From NCBI GenBank assembly GCA_022616535.1, contig JAKEEM010000009.1, positions 11,353 to 75,352 of the forward strand: a stretch of DNA of 64,000 bases, given 5' to 3'. A program made the translations under genes and the position numbers. Of the stretch, positions 3,708-33,029 are shown piece by piece. Source of the DNA: Chlorobiota bacterium (lineage in GTDB: Bacteria; Bacteroidota; Ignavibacteria; Tepidaquicellales; OLB5). Each line of letters starts with the position of its first letter. Within the stretch, counting starts at the first letter, position 1. Under the pieces are notes generated by a model. It made no database searches, was not told the origin of the DNA, and worked only from the letters and a program-made list of their open reading frames with translations.

Positions 3708-4009
3708 TACCACGTGAGATAGGAAGCTATACTCTATAATTGTTTATTTTAACACCACCTTTATCTCACAGGGTTTTACCACCGTGTGCTTGTCCCCCTT
3801 ATAAAGGGGGATAAAGGGGGATCGGAAACCCCGCAAAACCAAAAATCATAAAATATGTTGAATATTTAATCAGTTAATTTGTTATATGCAGCCCGTAACT
3901 CAACATAAATATCACCCGTCAACATTTCTCCAAGTAAGAAAAATTGCCAATACAAAAGAATTTAAACATATTTCTCACCCAACTTTACATAATATCGGAT
4001 TTGGAACAC

Positions 4010-4246: not shown

Positions 4247-4282
4247 TAATTAACTCAATGAACTTAATTAACTCAATGAACT
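4247..4282. repeat. 18-bp tandem repeat (TAATTAACTCAATGAACT x2), with a third AACTCAATGAACTT copy at 4207-4220
   Basis: Read directly. Lies immediately 3' of the prs stop codon on the minus strand. Confidence 0.85.
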
Positions 4283-4286
4283 CGCT

Positions 4287-5225
4287 TTACTCGACTTTAA
4301 ACAGCGCGCTAATGGACTGGTTCTCGTTGGTGCGTATTATAGTGTTAGAAAGGAGCTTCGATACGTCAAGCACCTCAATTTTGGGAGATTTAACATGAAT
4401 TGGAATGGTATTGGAAACAACAAGCTTTGTAATGCAGGAGTTGTTAATCTTCTCAACTGCCTGCCCGGAAAGAATCGGGTGAGTCGCCGCCCCGTAAATA
4501 TCCCCGGCTCCTGCCTTCTTAAGCGCATCGACTGCGGCAACAAATGTGTTGGCGGTATCAATCAAATCATCAATTATCAAAACGTTCTTACCTTCAACTT
4601 CACCGATTATGTTCATCACTTCGGCAACGTTGGGTCTGGGTCTTCGCTTATCGATGAGAATCAAATCAGCGCCAAGCTCTTTGGCGTACACCCGCGCCCG
4701 CTTGGAGCCGCCTACATCCGGCGCAGCTACGGCAAGATTCTTAAGCTTCTTGTGCTTGAAGTATTTGATGAACAAAACAGAGCAGTAAAGGTGGTCAACC
4801 GGTATATCGAAGAAACCCTGCAATTGAGGAGCATGCAAATCCATAGTTATGATACGGTCGACACCTGCCTCCGTAAGCAGGTTGGCAACAAGCTTGGCGG
4901 TGATGGAAACCCTCGGCATATCCTTCCTGTCCTGCCTCGCGTATCCGAAATAGGGGATAACCGCTGTAACCCTGTTGGCGGAAGCGCGGACTGCCGCATC
5001 AATCATTATCAAAAGCTCCATAATGTTATCGGCTGGAGGATTTGTTGTCTGCACAATGTATACGTCTTTTCCGCGGATGTTATCGTTATACTTTACCCAA
5101 ATCTCGCCGTCATTGAAGTTAACTATCCGGCATTTACCTACAGGCAGGTGAAGGTTATTACAGATTTCCTTAACCAGGTAGCTGGAGTTTCTGCCCGAAA
5201 AGATTTGTATCTCCGCTTTAGACAT
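4287..5225 (-). CDS. prs: ribose-phosphate pyrophosphokinase
   Basis: 312 aa. Has VTAVIPYFGYARQDRK and the PRPP-binding loop NVLIIDDLIDTANT characteristic of Prs. Confidence 0.92.
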   Translation of the reverse strand: MSKAEIQIFSGRNSSYLVKEICNNLHLPVGKCRIVNFNDGEIWVKYNDNIRGKDVYIVQTTNPPADNIMELLIMIDAAVRASANRVTAVIPYFGYARQDRKDMPRVSITAKLVANLLTEAGVDRIITMDLHAPQLQGFFDIPVDHLYCSVLFIKYFKHKKLKNLAVAAPDVGGSKRARVYAKELGADLILIDKRRPRPNVAEVMNIIGEVEGKNVLIIDDLIDTANTFVAAVDALKKAGAGDIYGAATHPILSGQAVEKINNSCITKLVVSNTIPIHVKSPKIEVLDVSKLLSNTIIRTNENQSISALFKVE

Positions 5226-8081: not shown

Positions 8082-9359
8082 TTATTTTTTCGTTTGCTTA
8101 ATTTTTTTCTTTTGGTTTTGCTTTATCTCGGATTTCTTTAGCTGTTTCTTTTTTTCTTCAAGCTCTTGCTTTACTTTTTCCTCTTTAATCTTTTCAAGCG
8201 TTTGTCTTTTTTCTTGCTCTGATAAAAATTCGCTTATGCTGTAAAATTTGTGTCCGAGTTTTTTTAAAATCAGGATTTCGTTGTAAAATTTTTCGAATTC
8301 ATCGGGTTCAATGTCAAGCACCGTAATTGCAGTTTTGCTGAGTTTAGCCTTTGATTTTAAGGAATTAACGATTTTGTTAATCTTGTCTTTCGATTCTACC
8401 TCTGCTTCTGTCAAAAGCTTTAATAAAGCCGAATCATTAATTACTCTGATATTAAAATTATTTAATTCTTCCGAAATCAAATCCATTTTCCCGTTTGTAA
8501 CTTCGGCATCCGGTTTTGTCAATATTACAGTCGAAATAGAAGGATAATCCGACGAGAAACTTTTTACTTTTTCTTTTACCGTTTTTTCATCGTAAGACAT
8601 ATTAAAATCAGAATCGTAATTATCTTTTGCGCCGACGGTCAAATTTATAAGGACTTCTTTTTTATTTTGGAGAAGCTTTGTCTGCAGGTTTACCTTGTCA
8701 AGGCTTCTTGGAAATACAAAGCTGAATTCATTTTTGTTTAATAAATATTTTTCAATCTCTTCATCATTATAGCTTGAGATGTTGTCAAGGATTATTGCGA
8801 AAACTCCCGCGTCACGGGATATTTTACCCGAATGTTTTACTGAGACTTTTACAAGCAGGGGATTTGAAGAAGCCGAATCCGGATTGTAAATATTTATGAG
8901 TATGGCTTTACTTAAAATGTCCTCATTAACTGTGGATGATAATCCTGCAGTTTTAATATAGTTTGTTATATCCAGATTTATCTCAATTGTGGAAATCTCC
9001 TTGGGGATTAAGAGTTCTTTTGCAAACCATTTCGGACTTTTTAAGGGACTGTTGGAAGCGGTTTTTCCTCCGGTTGACTCATATAACGTTTTTATCCATT
9101 CTTTTTTAATACCAAAGTTAAAAAGAACACTATCGATTCCCTTATCCAGTGTTTTTTCAAAAGTTTCAGGGTCGGATTTTTTAACTTCGGGGTTTTCGGG
9201 CTGAGTTACCGAAGAATCACCAGAATTTAGGTTATCTGCTTCATTTTTCAGGAAAAACTTTGTTATAAGGAGAGCAGCAGCCGTGATTGCAATGGCAGAA
9301 AGGATAAGAACTTTATTTCGGAACGAATTAAAAAACTTTTTTATTTTAAATTTTGGCAA
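8082..9359 (-). CDS. hypothetical membrane-anchored protein with a Lys/Glu-rich C-terminal tail
   Basis: 425 aa with an N-terminal TM segment (VLILSAIAITAAALLI) and a charged tail (EKIKEEKVKQELEEKKKQLKK...). Function not recognised. Confidence 0.5.
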   Translation of the reverse strand: MPKFKIKKFFNSFRNKVLILSAIAITAAALLITKFFLKNEADNLNSGDSSVTQPENPEVKKSDPETFEKTLDKGIDSVLFNFGIKKEWIKTLYESTGGKTASNSPLKSPKWFAKELLIPKEISTIEINLDITNYIKTAGLSSTVNEDILSKAILINIYNPDSASSNPLLVKVSVKHSGKISRDAGVFAIILDNISSYNDEEIEKYLLNKNEFSFVFPRSLDKVNLQTKLLQNKKEVLINLTVGAKDNYDSDFNMSYDEKTVKEKVKSFSSDYPSISTVILTKPDAEVTNGKMDLISEELNNFNIRVINDSALLKLLTEAEVESKDKINKIVNSLKSKAKLSKTAITVLDIEPDEFEKFYNEILILKKLGHKFYSISEFLSEQEKRQTLEKIKEEKVKQELEEKKKQLKKSEIKQNQKKKIKQTKK

Positions 9360-31116: not shown

Positions 31117-31764
31117 ATGGAAAATTCAATATCAAAGCGGTTTTTTTTAGTGTTTATATTTTCTTTGGTTACGTTTTTTTATTTTAACTGCGATGATTCA
31201 GGCATCGTTGAGCCGGAAAATCAGCAGCTTTGCATAACGGGACAAATCGTAAATTGGACACAAGGCACAAAAACTCTTCATGCATATGTCCGCAGCTCAT
31301 CGGGTCCTTCATTTTCAGTTGCAAATTGTCCGATTGACGCTGCGGGAAATTTCAACATCTGTCTTCCTGCTACGCTTTCGGATACTACTTTATTTTCATC
31401 CGATTCGATATTTTATATTGGCTGCACGGGCGGGGGAACGGTAACTTTTAATCCCCCTGACGGCAGAGGAACTGAGATAACCAGCTTCAGGGTAAAAAGC
31501 GGTGATACATTAATCGGTTATGTACGCAGAAATAACTACGATACTCTTTACCCGGGTGCTTTCAGTATAATGTATGTTTATGCAAATAAGGATGTTACTG
31601 TAAGCGGCTATAAAATTTGCACTAACGATACATTGCACTTTGACGGAACCGCAGCAAAAGGGTGGACAAAAGTCGTAAAGCACTGCTTAAGGGTTGCGGG
31701 ACCCGGAACGACTTATTTATATAACACTACAGAGCCTTCCGGAGCAGTCTGGGAATTTTATTAG
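31117..31764 (+). CDS. hypothetical lipoprotein
   Basis: 215 aa. The signal peptide ends in the lipobox-like FYFNC. No family recognised. Confidence 0.5.
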   Translation: MENSISKRFFLVFIFSLVTFFYFNCDDSGIVEPENQQLCITGQIVNWTQGTKTLHAYVRSSSGPSFSVANCPIDAAGNFNICLPATLSDTTLFSSDSIFYIGCTGGGTVTFNPPDGRGTEITSFRVKSGDTLIGYVRRNNYDTLYPGAFSIMYVYANKDVTVSGYKICTNDTLHFDGTAAKGWTKVVKHCLRVAGPGTTYLYNTTEPSGAVWEFY

Positions 31765-31827
31765 TAATCAATATCATTAAATGAATTGCAAGATTTTTCG
31801 ATTTTTAGTAAATTCGTAATTCGTTAC

Positions 31828-31902
31828 GGAGCCGTAGTTCAGTTTGGTTAGAACGCCTGACTGTCACTCAGGAGGTCGCGAGTTCGAGTCTCGTCGGTTC
31901 CG
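31828..31902 (+). tRNA. tRNA-Asp (GTC)
   Basis: Folded by hand. Acceptor GGAGCCG/CGGTTCC; D arm GTTC...GAAC; anticodon stem CCTGA/TCAGG with loop CTGTCAC; T arm GCGAG-TTCGAGT-CTCGT; discriminator G. CCA is not encoded. Confidence 0.9.
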
Positions 31903-31904
31903 CA

Positions 31905-31928
31905 AAAATGCCCATATTGGGCATTTTC
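31905..31928 (+). terminator. hairpin terminator after tRNA-Asp
   Basis: ATGCCCA-TAT-TGGGCAT followed by TTTC. Confidence 0.6.
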
Positions 31929-31932
31929 TGTT

Positions 31933-32196
31933 ATGCATTACACATACATTTTAAAAAGCAAGATAACTGATAAATATTATATAGGTTCTACAGATAACCC
32001 TGAACGAAGGTTAATCTTGCATAATGAAGGGTATTCTATATCAACAAAAGCATATATTCCATGGAAACTGGTGTATTTTGAAACATTTGATACAAAAACC
32101 GAAGCATTGAGAAGAGAAAAACAACTTAAGAAAATGAAAAGTAAAAAGTATATTGAGTGGTTGATTAAGAATCATTCAGGAGGTCGTCCCGATTAA
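31933..32196 (+). CDS. stand-alone GIY-YIG nuclease family protein (URI domain)
   Basis: 87 aa. Has YTYIL...YYIGST...ERRLILHN...REKQLK, i.e. the GIY, YIG, Arg and Glu motifs. Its last 7 codons read through the partial tRNA repeat. Confidence 0.85.
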   Translation: MHYTYILKSKITDKYYIGSTDNPERRLILHNEGYSISTKAYIPWKLVYFETFDTKTEALRREKQLKKMKSKKYIEWLIKNHSGGRPD

Positions 32197-32221
32197 ATCG
32201 GGAAGTCTCGTCGGTTCCGCA
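32176..32221 (+). repeat. partial duplicate of the tRNA-Asp 3' half, with the T arm replaced
   Basis: TCAGGAGGTCG (= 31868-31878) plus a new hairpin TCCCGATTAAATCGGGAAG plus TCTCGTCGGTTCCGCA (= 31889-31904). Confidence 0.85.
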
Positions 32222-32228
32222 AAAAAAT

Positions 32229-32262
32229 AAGGCACTTAGGATAAACCCTAAGTGCCTTTAGT
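32229..32262 (+). terminator. intrinsic terminator after the GIY-YIG/tRNA fragment
   Basis: AAGGCACTTAGG-loop-CCTAAGTGCCTT followed by TAGTTTTT. Confidence 0.7.
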
Positions 32263-32384
32263 TTTTACTCGTTTCCTCTTGGGTCCTTTTTTTAGTTTTT
32301 ATGGATAAACTCTTGCTATACTTTTATTTATATTAGAAGACAAATGAAATCATTAAATTAATAACTTAAAATAAACTTATTATT

Positions 32385-33029
32385 ATGTACGATCTCCCGT
32401 ATCACAAAGAACAAAATGCAAAGGTAATTAAGGAATTTGTTGACCAGCATCCATTTGCTTTTTTAGCCGGATGCGATTCACAAAACAAACCTGTTGCTAC
32501 ACAGGTGCCGATTTTTATTGAAGAAACCGACGGCAGGAAAATACTGAGGGGACATATCATGAAAAATACAGATCATCATAAAGCCTTTTTGCATAATAAA
32601 AACGTTCTTGTAGTTTTCACCGGTCATCACACCTATGTAAGCGCTACATGGTATTGTAATCCGCATCAGGCTTCTACATGGAACTATATGAGCGTACATG
32701 TTAAGGGCATTATCAGGTTTCTGGATGACGCTGCGTTAGAAGAAGTACTCCGGAAGACAACTCTTCATTTTGAAAACTATAATCAGCAATCCACAACGAT
32801 TTTTGATAACCTACCTTTAGAATATAAACAAAAATTAATGAAGGCAATTGTAGCTTTTGAAATTGAAGTAAAAGAAATGGACAATGTTTTCAAATTAAGT
32901 CAGGACAGAGATTCTAAAAGCTATGACAATATTAGAGAGAAGCTCAAAGAACAGGGTGAAGCGGGACAGGTGATTGCTTCTGAGATGGAAAAAAGAACTA
33001 AGGAACTATTTCCTGATGATAAACAATAG
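32385..33029 (+). CDS. FMN-binding negative transcriptional regulator, PaiB family
   Basis: 214 aa. The N-terminus (KEFVDQHPFAFL...ATQVPIF...LRGHIMKNTDH) resembles the PaiB/FMN_bind_2 family. Confidence 0.7.
   Translation: MYDLPYHKEQNAKVIKEFVDQHPFAFLAGCDSQNKPVATQVPIFIEETDGRKILRGHIMKNTDHHKAFLHNKNVLVVFTGHHTYVSATWYCNPHQASTWNYMSVHVKGIIRFLDDAALEEVLRKTTLHFENYNQQSTTIFDNLPLEYKQKLMKAIVAFEIEVKEMDNVFKLSQDRDSKSYDNIREKLKEQGEAGQVIASEMEKRTKELFPDDKQ

Follow-up and report, generated by a model that had tools for sequence, protein, structure and literature searches.

Anatomy of the tRNA-Asp Locus

The window, by which we mean the whole 64-kb stretch of DNA that was analyzed, contains according to ARAGORN a single tRNA gene, an intact, live copy of tRNA-Asp(GTC) on the plus strand at positions 31828-31903 (Rfam RF00005, 68.9 bits, E = 8.7e-15). 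It is preceded on the same strand by a leader with a promoter-like block (31800-31827), in which TAAATTCG at 31809-31816 resembles the Bacteroidota -7 element TAnnTTTG. A comparable block, GATTTTTAGT(A/T)AAATT(C/T)G, lies 5' of tRNA-Asp in two of the loci compared (L001 and L083), and we infer that the putative promoter at 31800-31827 would drive the whole unit. No promoter-like site was found in the 29 nt that separate the tRNA from the open reading frame (ORF) behind it. These 29 nt include terminator 1 (31905-31932, plus strand), an inverted repeat AAAATGCCCA-TAT-TGGGCATTTT followed by a T run, of which the hairpin proper (31905-31927) has a perfect, 100% complementary 10-bp stem (-13.9 kcal/mol, z = -4.1 in RNA folding). 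Terminator 1 is borne by the cassette: it is unlike the terminator of the empty site described below and varies with the lineage of the ORF.

The ORF (31933-32196, plus strand) encodes a GIY-YIG nuclease of 87 amino acids that is assigned to the UPF0213/Slx1-like type by Pfam, a profile search of the PDB, AF2 modeling, and Foldseek. A first-pass annotation had put this gene 4 nt behind the hairpin of terminator 1; the close adjacency holds, but the ATG begins 5 nt past the hairpin arm. At its 3' end the ORF reads into a partial second copy of the tRNA, which consists of two pieces on the plus strand. Piece 1 (32172-32186, 15 nt, 14/15 identical to 31864-31878) runs from the 3' side of the anticodon loop through the anticodon stem (3' strand) and the variable loop up to the first T-stem base, while piece 2 (32204-32225, 22/22 identical to 31887-31908) comprises the end of the T loop, the 3' strands of the T and acceptor stems, the discriminator base, and AAAAA. 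That parts of the tRNA 3' half had been kept unchanged was thus correctly recognized from the outset, although the extent of the 3' block had to be revised to the 22 nt AGTCTCGTCGGTTCCGCAAAAA. By an arithmetic estimate, an exact 22-mer repeat is expected by chance about 1e-8 times in a 700-nt region. Between the two pieces, where the core of the T arm should be, stands a different hairpin, TCCCGAT-TAA-ATCGGGA or TCCCGATTAAATCGGGA (32187-32203, plus strand, -9.3 kcal/mol), as the first-pass annotation had claimed; it is of the type that we call type I, and its loop holds the TAA stop codon of the ORF. Neither ARAGORN nor Rfam calls the partial copy a tRNA, and in a scan of positions 31600-32500 with Rfam 15 (E <= 1) only the intact tRNA passes, the rest lying below the gathering score.

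The unit is closed by terminator 2 (32229-32267, plus strand), with a 12-13 bp stem and a T run, the hairpin of which (32229-32258) folds at -21.5 kcal/mol (z = -5.8). The same AATAAGGCACTTAG... terminator stands directly 3' of the uninterrupted tRNA-Asp in L083 and 3' of the partial copies in L001 and L003, which identifies it as the native terminator of tRNA-Asp. Relative to an uninterrupted tRNA-Asp locus, and judged by the spacing of the repeats and by analogy with the filled and empty sites described below, the insert is 317 bp long (31909-32225, plus strand) and takes in terminator 1 and the ORF together with the partial tRNA copy; where exactly its edges fall is ambiguous within the 22-nt direct repeat. 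The 87-aa ORF is its sole gene, in agreement with the earlier estimate of an element of about 320 bp with a nuclease as its only gene. No integrase, no transposase, and no terminal inverted repeats were found in the insert; the flanking repeat is the 15 + 22 nt of tRNA sequence. All elements of the first-pass description, from tRNA-Asp(GTC) and its terminator through the 87-aa GIY-YIG ORF to the copy of the tRNA 3' half and the second terminator, are therefore present where they had been placed.

The Nuclease

The ORF matches the Pfam GIY-YIG family (PF01541) over profile positions 1-77 of 78 with E = 1.6e-17 and 64 bits, against a cut-off of 22.6. Across 41 homologues Y16, G18, R26, H30, E62, and K66 are invariant and Y5 nearly so, and by analogy with the superfamily the conserved Tyr, Arg, and metal-binding Glu would take the catalytic roles. 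In a profile search of the PDB (hmmsearch) the best matches were 1zg2 (E = 2.7e-9) and 1ywl (2.7e-8), followed by Slx1 (7e-4) and I-TevI (0.09). Foldseek ranked the AF2 model (pLDDT 81.5; order beta-beta-alpha-beta-alpha-alpha) in the same way, 1zg2 being followed by the Slx1 nuclease domain (TM 0.61, 33% identity), with I-TevI at E = 0.2. Both Pfam and the model depict a single domain of 87 aa, that is, a catalytic domain only, with no DNA-binding module. On these comparisons the protein is a predicted nuclease of the minimal UPF0213/Slx1-like type. It matched no NCBIfam entry or equivalog and no anti-phage defence family of PADLOC, and no relative was found on viral contigs.

The dN/dS ratios of 0.07-0.21 with retention of the catalytic residues indicate purifying selection, and synonymous sites are saturated among the ORFs of the clade found at tRNA-Asp, which points to long residence rather than recent spread in these lineages. 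The proposal that the C-terminus of the nuclease is partly encoded by tRNA sequence proved correct: its residues HSGGR derive from piece 1 (32172-32186). However, this tail is probably incidental, as it lies in a low-confidence region of the AF2 model, and in L005 the ORF ends before the hairpin module, which is conserved all the same.

Recurrence Beside tRNA Genes

The arrangement is not confined to this locus. A tRNA gene lies on the same strand within 150 nt in 58 of 79 related loci and solely on the opposite strand in none, and most of the remaining loci are either the second unit of an array or situated at the edge of a contig, so that the GIY-YIG genes flanked by tRNA repeats that had been predicted for relatives of this DNA do exist. 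When the tRNA is upstream, the ORF is followed by a 3' partial copy of that very tRNA (32 of 37 loci, z > 6); when it is downstream, the ORF is preceded by a matching 5' partial copy (21 of 24). The host tRNAs comprise Asp, Leu, Lys, Arg, Pro, Ala, Asn, Ser, Met, and Glu, and whatever the isoacceptor, the partial copy always matches the neighboring tRNA. Carriers belong to the Ignavibacteriota, Bacteroidota, CPR/Patescibacteria, and other phyla, and a single metagenome-assembled genome may have copies at different tRNAs. Cultured carriers include Melioribacter roseus, Tenacibaculum sp. A30, Arenibacter troitsensis DSM 19835, Algoriphagus spp., Flagellimonas alvinocaridis, and Namhaeicola litoreus. 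The same architecture at many tRNA species in several phyla means that the locus in the window is no local accident. No integrase was found in the list of ORFs of the window or in the loci examined.

We give next to no credence to a reading in which the arrangement arose through local duplication by chance, or in which an ordinary island with an integrase has left a scar, namely a tRNA 3' half beside an unrelated small gene. It could draw on L081 and L082, exceptions in which a tRNA-Asp 3' half occurs without a nuclease; these fragments keep an intact T arm, and they indicate that other elements use tRNA-Asp as well. Fragments lacking an ORF were otherwise found within loci that carry the nuclease (L052, L009, and L002), and neither of the observations named beforehand as signs of a fortuitous duplication was made. 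The reading is contradicted by the recurrence, by the co-orientation with the tRNA, and by the matching partial copies in relatives, and a 317-bp insert without an integrase and a conserved hairpin motif (see below) speak against it as well.

Filled and empty sites can be compared directly in one pair. L083, in which tRNA-Asp is followed directly by the sequence of terminator 2, is the empty site that had been predicted to exist, and it is 98.8% identical to L001 over 3,961 bp upstream, to the end of the tRNA. Exactly after nucleotide 74 of the tRNA, L001 has an insert of 328 bp. Further downstream, within terminator 2, identity falls to about 80% over the short stretch available, the contig of L083 ending 92 nt past the tRNA; such a drop would be as expected for co-conversion from a diverged donor, but may also stem from a separate island. 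An empty site like that of L083 would arise just as well if the segment between the direct repeats had been deleted. The flanking genes of the window match none of the flanks of L001-L005 and L011, which makes these loci unusable as an orthologous filled or empty comparison for the window, and relatives of the downstream FMN-binding gene (88-89% amino acid identity; L084, L085) are uninformative because they have no tRNA-Asp near that gene.

Tandem units occur in L002, L004, L009, and L011, with two ORFs in L002 that are identical over their overlapping translations and two in L004 that are about 91% identical. The ORF is a pseudogene in L005 and truncated at other loci, and in L052 and L009 the live tRNA and the ORF are preceded by ORF-less tandem arrays built of partial tRNA and hairpin. 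As is usual for repeats, no more than a few hundred nt separate several of the ORFs from a contig end. The cassette may be found on either side of the same tRNA (L005, L036/L043), and in L005 the partial copies carry the lineage-specific acceptor change of the live tRNA. The clades of the nuclease follow tRNA identity, and the switches seen are between the near-identical Arg-ACG and Arg-TCG and, within the Arg clade, to Ala-GGC; switches among similar tRNAs are consistent with a spread that depends on homology.

These data also bear on the possibility, which we regard as decidedly unlikely, that the nuclease gene has been domesticated by the host: the enzyme would be ancient, inherited vertically, and structure-selective, and would be kept beside tRNA genes for a host function, such as handling stalled forks or R-loops at these highly transcribed genes or guarding tRNA attachment sites, with the partial copies as by-products of tandem duplication and the absences as losses. 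The strong purifying selection with saturated dS, the fidelity of each clade to its tRNA across wide phylogenetic distances, the Slx1-like fold, the absence of relatives on viral contigs, and the empty site, which deletion between the repeats explains equally, would all suit such a gene. It would hardly be expected, however, to occur as pseudogenes and truncated ORFs, in tandem and ORF-less arrays, near contig ends in the manner of a repeat, or on either side of the same tRNA (as at the loci named above). Nor does it have an NCBIfam equivalog, and in two otherwise 98.8% identical genomes identity drops sharply and precisely at the insert. The recurrent tRNA repeats and the empty site support the selfish cassette that had been suspected from the window.

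The Replacement Hairpin

In the redundant tRNA copy, arms of the tRNA are replaced by GC-rich hairpins of 17-20 nt. In the Asp clade it is the T arm that is replaced, and the anticodon is absent from the copy, while in Lys, Leu, and Pro cassettes (L028, L030, L050) the anticodon arm is replaced and the T arm, the acceptor, and part of the trailer are the same as in the live tRNA. In relatives at Asp, Leu, Lys, Ala, Pro, and Asn tRNAs the type I motif lies between -28 and +27 nt relative to the stop codon of the ORF, and the hairpin keeps a roughly constant distance from the end of the ORF, whichever arm it replaces. Its type appears to differ between the clades of the nuclease, type I being TCCCGAT..ATCGGGA and type II, CCCGCCCG.., belonging mainly to a Flavobacteriia clade. 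Positions in the stem covary through four pair types. A 33-nt module around the hairpin of the window is identical to that of L003 (33/33), whereas third codon positions are only 57% identical, and the hairpin module is generally far better conserved than synonymous sites, also where it is non-coding. Taken from these alignments, the replacement hairpin is a conserved, covarying motif and not the outcome of random decay. The hairpins behave as discrete units of about 20 nt, one being nested in another in L001 and one extra being present in L003, and they were seen only in tRNA-derived sequence adjoining cassettes. In RNA folding there is wider pairing around the hairpin of the window, in a sequence that is set by the tRNA and the codons. 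As a dispersed repeat the hairpin was not recovered, the 64-kb window holding only three loose matches, one of them type I; the two extra matches have CCCGC cores, and one of these lies inside a 425-aa ORF. The hairpin arms do not act as terminal inverted repeats of the ORF either, no matching arm being present upstream of it.

A motif of this kind raises the question whether the copy functions as RNA. The nuclease might act on RNA or in the manner of a toxin-antitoxin system, targeting its cognate tRNA or the precursor, with the co-transcribed, hairpin-bearing copy as decoy, antidote, or regulator; the ToxI repeat array upstream of toxN is the comparison that comes to mind. This would accommodate the strict co-orientation and presumed co-transcription with the tRNA, the tie of each nuclease clade to one tRNA species, the conservation of the hairpin or tRNA-like module well beyond synonymous sites even where non-coding, and the ORF-less arrays of partial tRNA and hairpin upstream of the live tRNA and ORF (L052, L009). 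Fusions of Slx1-like GIY-YIG domains with a tRNA methyltransferase of the TrmH type have been described, and a role in RNA metabolism has been suggested for them (Dunin-Horkawicz et al., 2006; PMC1564403). The cognate anticodon is found in 10 of 27 hairpin loops, compared to 5.8% for non-cognate anticodons, a weak lead that is weakened further because TAA in the loops doubles as the stop codon and the loops are AT-rich. Among the mismatches in the stems G-T is not in excess over A-C, and thus there is no RNA-specific signal. In the Asp clade the copy has no anticodon at all and the hairpin takes the place of the T arm, and neither an Rfam nor a PADLOC family was matched. To our knowledge no GIY-YIG RNase has been described, and on the whole we find an RNA-directed or toxin-antitoxin-like nuclease decidedly unlikely.

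Alternatively, the ORF and the hairpin might move together like an integron cassette or a REP/RAYT element, the GC hairpin folding in single-stranded DNA to become the site of recombination or cleavage and tRNA arms being preferred as targets because they form similar hairpins. The near-fixed distance of the hairpin from the ORF end at any tRNA arm, its apparently clade-dependent type (I or II), the covariation through four pair types, the discrete, nested, or extra units of L001 and L003, and the co-oriented arrays with their ORF-less units are what such a system might produce. It would lack a recombinase or HUH/Y1 transposase, however, and GIY-YIG enzymes are not known to rejoin DNA; the motif hairpin stands at one end of the ORF only and is not dispersed, with a single match of the right type in 64 kb. 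We therefore consider recombination at the hairpin itself very improbable.

A Proposed Selfish Cassette in tRNA Transcription Units

We hold, with somewhat more belief than doubt, that the locus belongs to a family of selfish cassettes of about 320 bp, which sit inside tRNA transcription units, each with a single gene for a minimal Slx1/UPF0213-type GIY-YIG nuclease on the strand of the tRNA, and which would spread through the repair of breaks by homologous recombination, in the manner of the phage enzyme SegB. Here live tRNA-Asp would be followed by a leaky terminator borne by the cassette and by the ORF, and after these would come the displaced 3' tRNA part with the native terminator. The ORF, with no promoter of its own, would be expressed at a low level through read-through from the tRNA promoter. 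Since a direct repeat of tRNA sequence brackets the cassette, one intact copy of the tRNA always survives. The nuclease would break DNA at or near tRNA genes, and repair by homologous recombination, in which the near-invariant sequence of the tRNA and the partial copy of it would act as homology arms, would copy the cassette into those alleles of that tRNA gene that lack it and cause local tandem amplification. Within the cassette, the hairpin standing in for an arm of the redundant copy would act as a cis element. Loss of the T arm in the Asp clade would keep the right-hand junction from restoring a site composed of T arm, acceptor, and native trailer, and so would confer immunity, an argument limited to this clade because the partial copies at Lys, Leu, and Pro tRNAs retain both T arm and acceptor. 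Against selfish spread of this kind stands that the closest structural relatives of the protein, by profile and model, are structure-selective nucleases (Slx1) and not homing enzymes, and the recognition of one specific tRNA gene is hard to explain for an 87-aa protein without a DNA-binding domain.

A bolder proposal, which is unlikely, has two versions. In the first, the nuclease and the GC hairpin that goes with it make up a novel pair of components that specifically remodels the DNA of tRNA genes: the enzyme would recognize hairpins or cruciforms formed by tRNA arms, set off a duplicative insertion, and turn arms in the redundant copy into hairpins of its own type. In the second, the remodeled copy would be a decoy, in the form of RNA, for a GIY-YIG nuclease directed against tRNA. 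The first version would make the cassette, at about 320 bp, the smallest autonomous bacterial mobile element known, with non-autonomous derivatives of 70-120 nt, while the decoy version would make the enzyme the first RNA-targeting member of the GIY-YIG superfamily.

Comparison with Known Systems

Of the known systems, the one closest to the proposed selfish cassette is SegB, a homing endonuclease of the GIY-YIG type that phages T4 and T6 encode as a free-standing gene: it, too, is embedded among tRNA genes and spreads with flanking tRNA sequence. SegB-type enzymes are larger and contain DNA-binding modules. The 27-bp recognition site of SegB contains the T-arm motif of a tRNA (PMC2330249), and the enzyme drives a recombination-dependent tandem amplification of the unit of tRNA plus segB, between the tRNA's 5' region and segB's 3' end, via microhomology (PMC13096335). 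This amplification matches the cassette arrays and the way in which the ORF ends read into tRNA sequence, and the presence/absence polymorphism by which SegB-type elements are recognized was seen in the single pair of filled L001 and empty L083. The cassette protein differs, however, in being an 87-aa bare catalytic domain from the Slx1/UPF0213 branch; for want of a DNA-binding module we do not class the cassette in the Seg/I-TevI family, although it would work like one of its members. SegB is moreover a phage gene, while the cassettes are chromosomal and no relatives were found on viral contigs, and the partial duplication of one tRNA gene and the conserved hairpin are features of the cassette that have not been described for SegB.

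The best matches of the protein itself, UPF0213/YhbQ/COG2827 and the Slx1 nuclease domain (PDB 1zg2, 1ywl, 6sei, 7cq2), share the same minimal GIY-YIG core, and stand-alone prokaryotic GIY-YIG proteins have been placed in the Slx1 cluster (Dunin-Horkawicz et al., 2006; PMC1564403). While these proteins are regarded as housekeeping or uncharacterized structure-selective nucleases, no report of UPF0213/Slx1-type genes nested in tRNA genes with tRNA duplications was found in the literature searched.

Integrase-borne islands and prophages at tRNA genes likewise leave a direct repeat of the tRNA 3' end and rebuild the live tRNA beside a displaced fragment, but they span kilobases and carry an integrase, in contrast to the 317 bp of the cassette. 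Unlike in these islands, the tRNA part repeated at the cassette may be the 5' one, in which case the ORF lies upstream of the live gene, and the displaced fragment is remodeled with hairpins. REP/RAYT elements resemble the cassettes in their short GC-rich palindromes, which appear to vary with the nuclease clade, and in their non-autonomous arrays. RAYTs, however, are HUH/Y1 enzymes and REPs are dispersed genome-wide, whereas the enzyme of the cassette is a GIY-YIG protein and its motif is not dispersed in the 64-kb window. Integron attC sites are considerably longer than the cassette hairpins of 17-20 nt, and no IntI integrase was seen among the listed ORFs or at the loci examined; insertion sequences and MITEs are distinguished by the transposase and the terminal inverted repeats that the cassette lacks. 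Fractured genes as described by Dassa et al. (2009; PMC2677866) have free-standing endonuclease genes between the halves of split inteins and in this respect also combine a small free-standing endonuclease gene with a host gene around it, but there the host gene is split and rejoined as protein, while the host of the cassette is an RNA gene that is kept whole by duplication.

In the full-text literature searched, no description of mini GIY-YIG genes bracketed by tRNA repeats was found, and the cassettes apparently are an undescribed family of very small selfish elements. If so, a widespread and apparently overlooked class of such elements exists in Ignavibacteriota, Bacteroidota, CPR/Patescibacteria, and other phyla, close to the lower size limit for a mobile element that encodes a nuclease. 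By duplicating a part of the essential gene that it enters, it would solve the problem that such an insertion poses; it would also borrow the tRNA promoter for expression and use the most conserved sequences of the genome as portable homology arms. The uncharacterized UPF0213/YhbQ-type bacterial homologues of Slx1 would thereby gain a first biological context, and the link between GIY-YIG nucleases and the amplification of tRNA loci recently made for phages would extend to bacterial chromosomes. Many annotations of a "partial tRNA" or of a "GIY-YIG nuclease family protein," as well as assembly breaks beside tRNA genes, would likewise be accounted for.

Structure of the tRNA-Asp Locus

The sole tRNA gene of the window, tRNA-Asp(GTC) on the forward strand (31828-31903), is directly followed by terminator 1, a hairpin of 10 perfect base pairs plus a T run (31905-31932), which occupies the 29-nt gap to the ATG of an 87-aa ORF (31933-32196) with a Pfam GIY-YIG domain (E = 1.6e-17). 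The 3' half of the tRNA then recurs in two pieces (32172-32186, 14/15 identical; 32204-32225, 22/22 identical), at a direct-repeat spacing of 317 bp. Between the pieces, in the position of the T-arm core, lies the hairpin TCCCGATTAAATCGGGA (32187-32203), and a strong terminator 2 follows (32229-32258). The C-terminus HSGGRPD and the stop codon are encoded by the tRNA-derived piece, with the stop codon inside the hairpin loop. The first-pass annotation had described a minimal GIY-YIG cassette between tRNA-Asp and a partial duplicate of the tRNA 3' half, and this description is accurate: tRNA-Asp, hairpin, ORF, both tRNA pieces, the replaced T-arm core and the terminator are all present. Further downstream, the 40 nt 5' of a gene for an FMN-binding regulator (window:32345-32384; aaatcattaaattaataactta.aataaacttattatt-ATG) are conserved in a related contig (L085:2960-3000), where the upstream neighbors of this gene differ, and the segment with tRNA-Asp and cassette thus lies in a variable inter-gene region.

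The Encoded Nuclease

The 87-aa protein is a bare catalytic domain. Among solved structures it comes closest to the UPF0213 proteins BH0048 and EF2693 and to the Slx1 nuclease domain, with I-TevI and UvrC much weaker, and the AF2 model is confident save for one loop and the tail encoded by tRNA sequence. The protein lacks the DNA-binding module by which the Seg/I-TevI enzymes are defined, which places it outside that family. Stand-alone prokaryotic GIY-YIG proteins of such kind belong to the Slx1 cluster, for which a fusion to a TrmH-type tRNA methyltransferase has also been recorded (Dunin-Horkawicz et al., 2006; PMC1564403). Searches gave only a weak match to a PHROG 'homing endonuclease' family and none to the PADLOC defence families. 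Residues Y16, G18, R26, H30, and E62 are invariant, and the ORFs of the Asp clade have dN/dS values of 0.07-0.21 with saturated dS. Judged by these substitution patterns, the protein is functional and the Asp-clade lineages are long separated.

Distribution and Association With tRNA Genes

Homologues of the window protein are found for the most part in Ignavibacteria and retain the tail SGGRPD down to 57% identity. The closest of them, database protein P0003 (85% identity), has a 30-residue N-terminal extension (MVRTPDCHSGGREFESRPFRKN...) that is a gene-calling artefact; it is translated tRNA-Asp plus terminator 1, which indicates the same architecture in a relative. With one genome scanned per species, 80 loci (79 evaluable) emerged; they are spread over Ignavibacteriota, Bacteroidota (Chitinophagaceae, Flavobacteriaceae, Bacteroidales, and others), CPR lineages including Saccharibacteria, and a small number of further groups. 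The proposal that the cassette targets tRNA genes implied tRNA-flanked relatives, and these exist: a same-strand tRNA lies at most 150 nt away in 58 of the 79 evaluable loci, and in none of the 79 is the sole nearby tRNA on the opposite strand. The remaining 21 are mostly second units of tandem arrays, contig-edge loci or loci with hairpin-bearing remnants only. Since a typical bacterial genome has about one tRNA per 80 kb by our own estimate, tRNA proximity is enriched roughly hundredfold. The arrangement is a family rather than an accident.

Clustering of the ORFs yields one tRNA species per clade (Asp, Leu-TAA, Lys-TTT, Ala-GGC, Arg-CCT, Pro-TGG, Ser, Met, and Arg-ACG/TCG); partners have been exchanged among near-identical tRNAs and, inside the Arg clade, for Ala-GGC. 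Such fidelity is as expected for movement dependent on homology to the tRNA, and would also fit a tRNA-specific nuclease.

Two Mirror-Image Architectures

In class A, to which the window belongs, the order is intact tRNA, short terminator, ORF and partial copy of that tRNA, the copy being significant in 32 of 37 loci (z > 6 against shuffles); the tRNAs involved are Asp, Leu, Lys, Arg, Asn, Glu, Pro, Met, Ser, and Ala. In class B, a partial copy of the tRNA 5' part (positions 1 to about 22-32; significant in 21/24 loci) precedes the ORF and the intact tRNA. Here the ORF often overlaps the live tRNA by 23-24 nt, with the D-arm TAG as its stop codon. In class B loci of Flavobacteriia with this overlap (L023, L024, L040, L053, L064, L068, L070, and others), the live tRNA is tRNA-Arg, tRNA-Pro or tRNA-Ala, and RNase P cleavage of the precursor would strip the stop codon from the mRNA, which may limit the amount of nuclease. 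The two classes occur together in a single protein clade for the same tRNA species (L043 and L036), and L005 has both at a single tRNA gene. In all cases, the ORF lies within the transcription unit of the tRNA, of which one copy is whole.

Hairpins Replacing tRNA Arms

The redundant tRNA copy is more than a decaying remnant: it has at least one arm swapped for a GC-rich hairpin, while the rest may match the live tRNA (L028, L030, L050). For the clades to which the window belongs, the hairpin motif reads (T/C)CCCGAT-loop-ATCGGG(A/G), located -28 to +27 nt from the ORF stop whichever arm is replaced; this type I hairpin takes the place of the T arm in Asp and of the anticodon arm in Lys, Pro, and Leu. 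The type II hairpin, CCCGCCCG(A)..loop..CGGGCGGG, breaks the D arm of the 5' partial copy in class B of Flavobacteriia, about 55-60 nt 5' of the ATG (L024, -58; L037 and L040, -55; L053 and L070, -60); in L057 and L067 it lies at -16 of the stop. A third type, CCTGCCTGCCGGCAGGCAGG, was seen in L054 and L055, and the hairpin type appears to vary between nuclease clades. Type I cassettes also occur on two contigs assigned to Proteobacteria (L033, a Gammaproteobacteria MAG; L052, binned as Bosea thiooxidans), which could reflect mis-binning or real spread beyond Bacteroidota and Ignavibacteriota.

Stem positions outside the fixed core are paired in 62/74, 58/74, and 51/70 distinct instances, with four pair types each. 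Between the window and the related locus L003, third codon positions are 57% identical and the 33-nt module CAGGAGGTCG-hairpin-AAGTCTC is identical at 33 of 33 positions, the non-coding arm included; L005 retains the module though its ORF stops before it. L001 has a type I hairpin within another (4253-4288, inserted after TCCCG), and the partial copy of L003 has an extra hairpin, TCCCGCCGAGGGCGGGA, in its acceptor-stem 3' strand (4281-4300); the hairpins thus act as discrete units of about 20 nt. We judge it very improbable that the unit is a hairpin-recombination cassette.

In two loci the live tRNA, which a GIY-YIG ORF follows, is preceded by a tandem array without ORFs, each unit being a partial tRNA with hairpin. 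The array of L052 (779-1152) has six units of about 72 nt, each a tRNA-Ala 5' half with the anticodon stem changed to TCCCG/CGGGA, and that of L009 (2830-3500) has five or six 120-nt units, each with two hairpins in a tRNA-Leu 5' part; the repeats of an array are nearly identical to one another. Around the cassette of the window (31600-32500), no Rfam family covers the hairpin or the partial tRNA copy. An RNA-level or toxin-antitoxin-like role, with the partial tRNA as decoy and arrays that resemble ToxI, is in our view unlikely. Two further loose TCCCG-N-CGGGA matches in the window, TCCCGCGAAGGCGGGA (52-67) and TCCCGCGTCACGGGA (8805-8819, inside a 425-aa ORF on the minus strand), share a CCCGC core and probably have no relation to the hairpin of the cassette.

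Empty Site and Turnover

A search of metagenome contigs for tRNA-Asp genes with the T arm intact and terminator-2 sequence directly joined to them yielded L083, an empty site such as insertion into a tRNA gene would predict, which is 98.8% identical to the cassette-bearing L001 over the 3,961 bp upstream to the tRNA end. L001 has a 328-bp insert that starts immediately after tRNA nt 74. This comparison identifies terminator 2 (in the window, L001, and L003) as the native tRNA-Asp terminator and terminator 1 as that of the cassette. Beyond the insert, identity falls to about 80% until the L083 contig ends 92 nt past the tRNA, which would fit co-conversion from a diverged donor, or a separate island. 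That the nuclease is instead a domesticated host gene, with absences as simple losses, we regard as unlikely.

Further signs of turnover include tandem units in L002, L004, L009, and L011; the ORFs of L002 have the same translation wherever they overlap, and those of L004 are about 91% identical. L005 has an ORF with an internal stop, other loci have truncated ORFs, several ORFs lie at most a few hundred nt from the end of their contig, and a single MAG can hold several copies at different tRNAs. In L005 (3562-4300), one tRNA-Asp gene is flanked by cassettes on both sides, in the order 5' partial copy with hairpin, internal-stop ORF, live tRNA, terminator, intact ORF, and 3' partial copy with hairpin. 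A lineage-specific acceptor-stem change (GGAGTCG / CGATTCC) is common to all three tRNA-derived pieces, which points to concerted evolution. In L002, two tandem GIY-YIG units lie 3' of the live tRNA, and immediately 5' of it, with no ORF between, is a tRNA-Asp pseudogene of full length that contains two type I hairpins (3780-3880).

Proposed Mode of Spread

Beside the established architecture, tRNA association, single presence/absence pair, and constraint on protein and hairpin, we propose the following mechanism. The ORF would be expressed by read-through from the tRNA promoter, with only 29 terminator-filled nt before the ATG, and the nuclease would break tRNA-gene DNA. Homologous recombination, for which the tRNA and the partial copy would supply the arms, would repair the breaks, copy the cassette into empty alleles and generate tandem arrays. 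[quoted passage not shown] Replacement of the T arm in the Asp clade would prevent the right-hand junction from re-forming 'T arm + acceptor + native trailer', and, together with the foreign trailer of the left-hand copy, could confer homing-element immunity; this account does not explain the clades in which the anticodon arm is replaced. By analogy, the cassette may be seen as a free-standing selfish nuclease gene that targets tRNA loci. Full-text searches of one literature collection found no description of this arrangement of mini GIY-YIG gene and tRNA duplication. Chance duplication or an integrase scar as its origin is effectively excluded.

Two further contigs have tRNA-Asp 3' halves from about position 28, with intact T arm and native terminator and no GIY-YIG gene (L081:647-746; L082:13237-13326). 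In L082, an ORF that by eye resembles an integrase N-terminus starts just 3' of the tRNA half, and tRNA-Asp is probably also an attachment site for larger elements.
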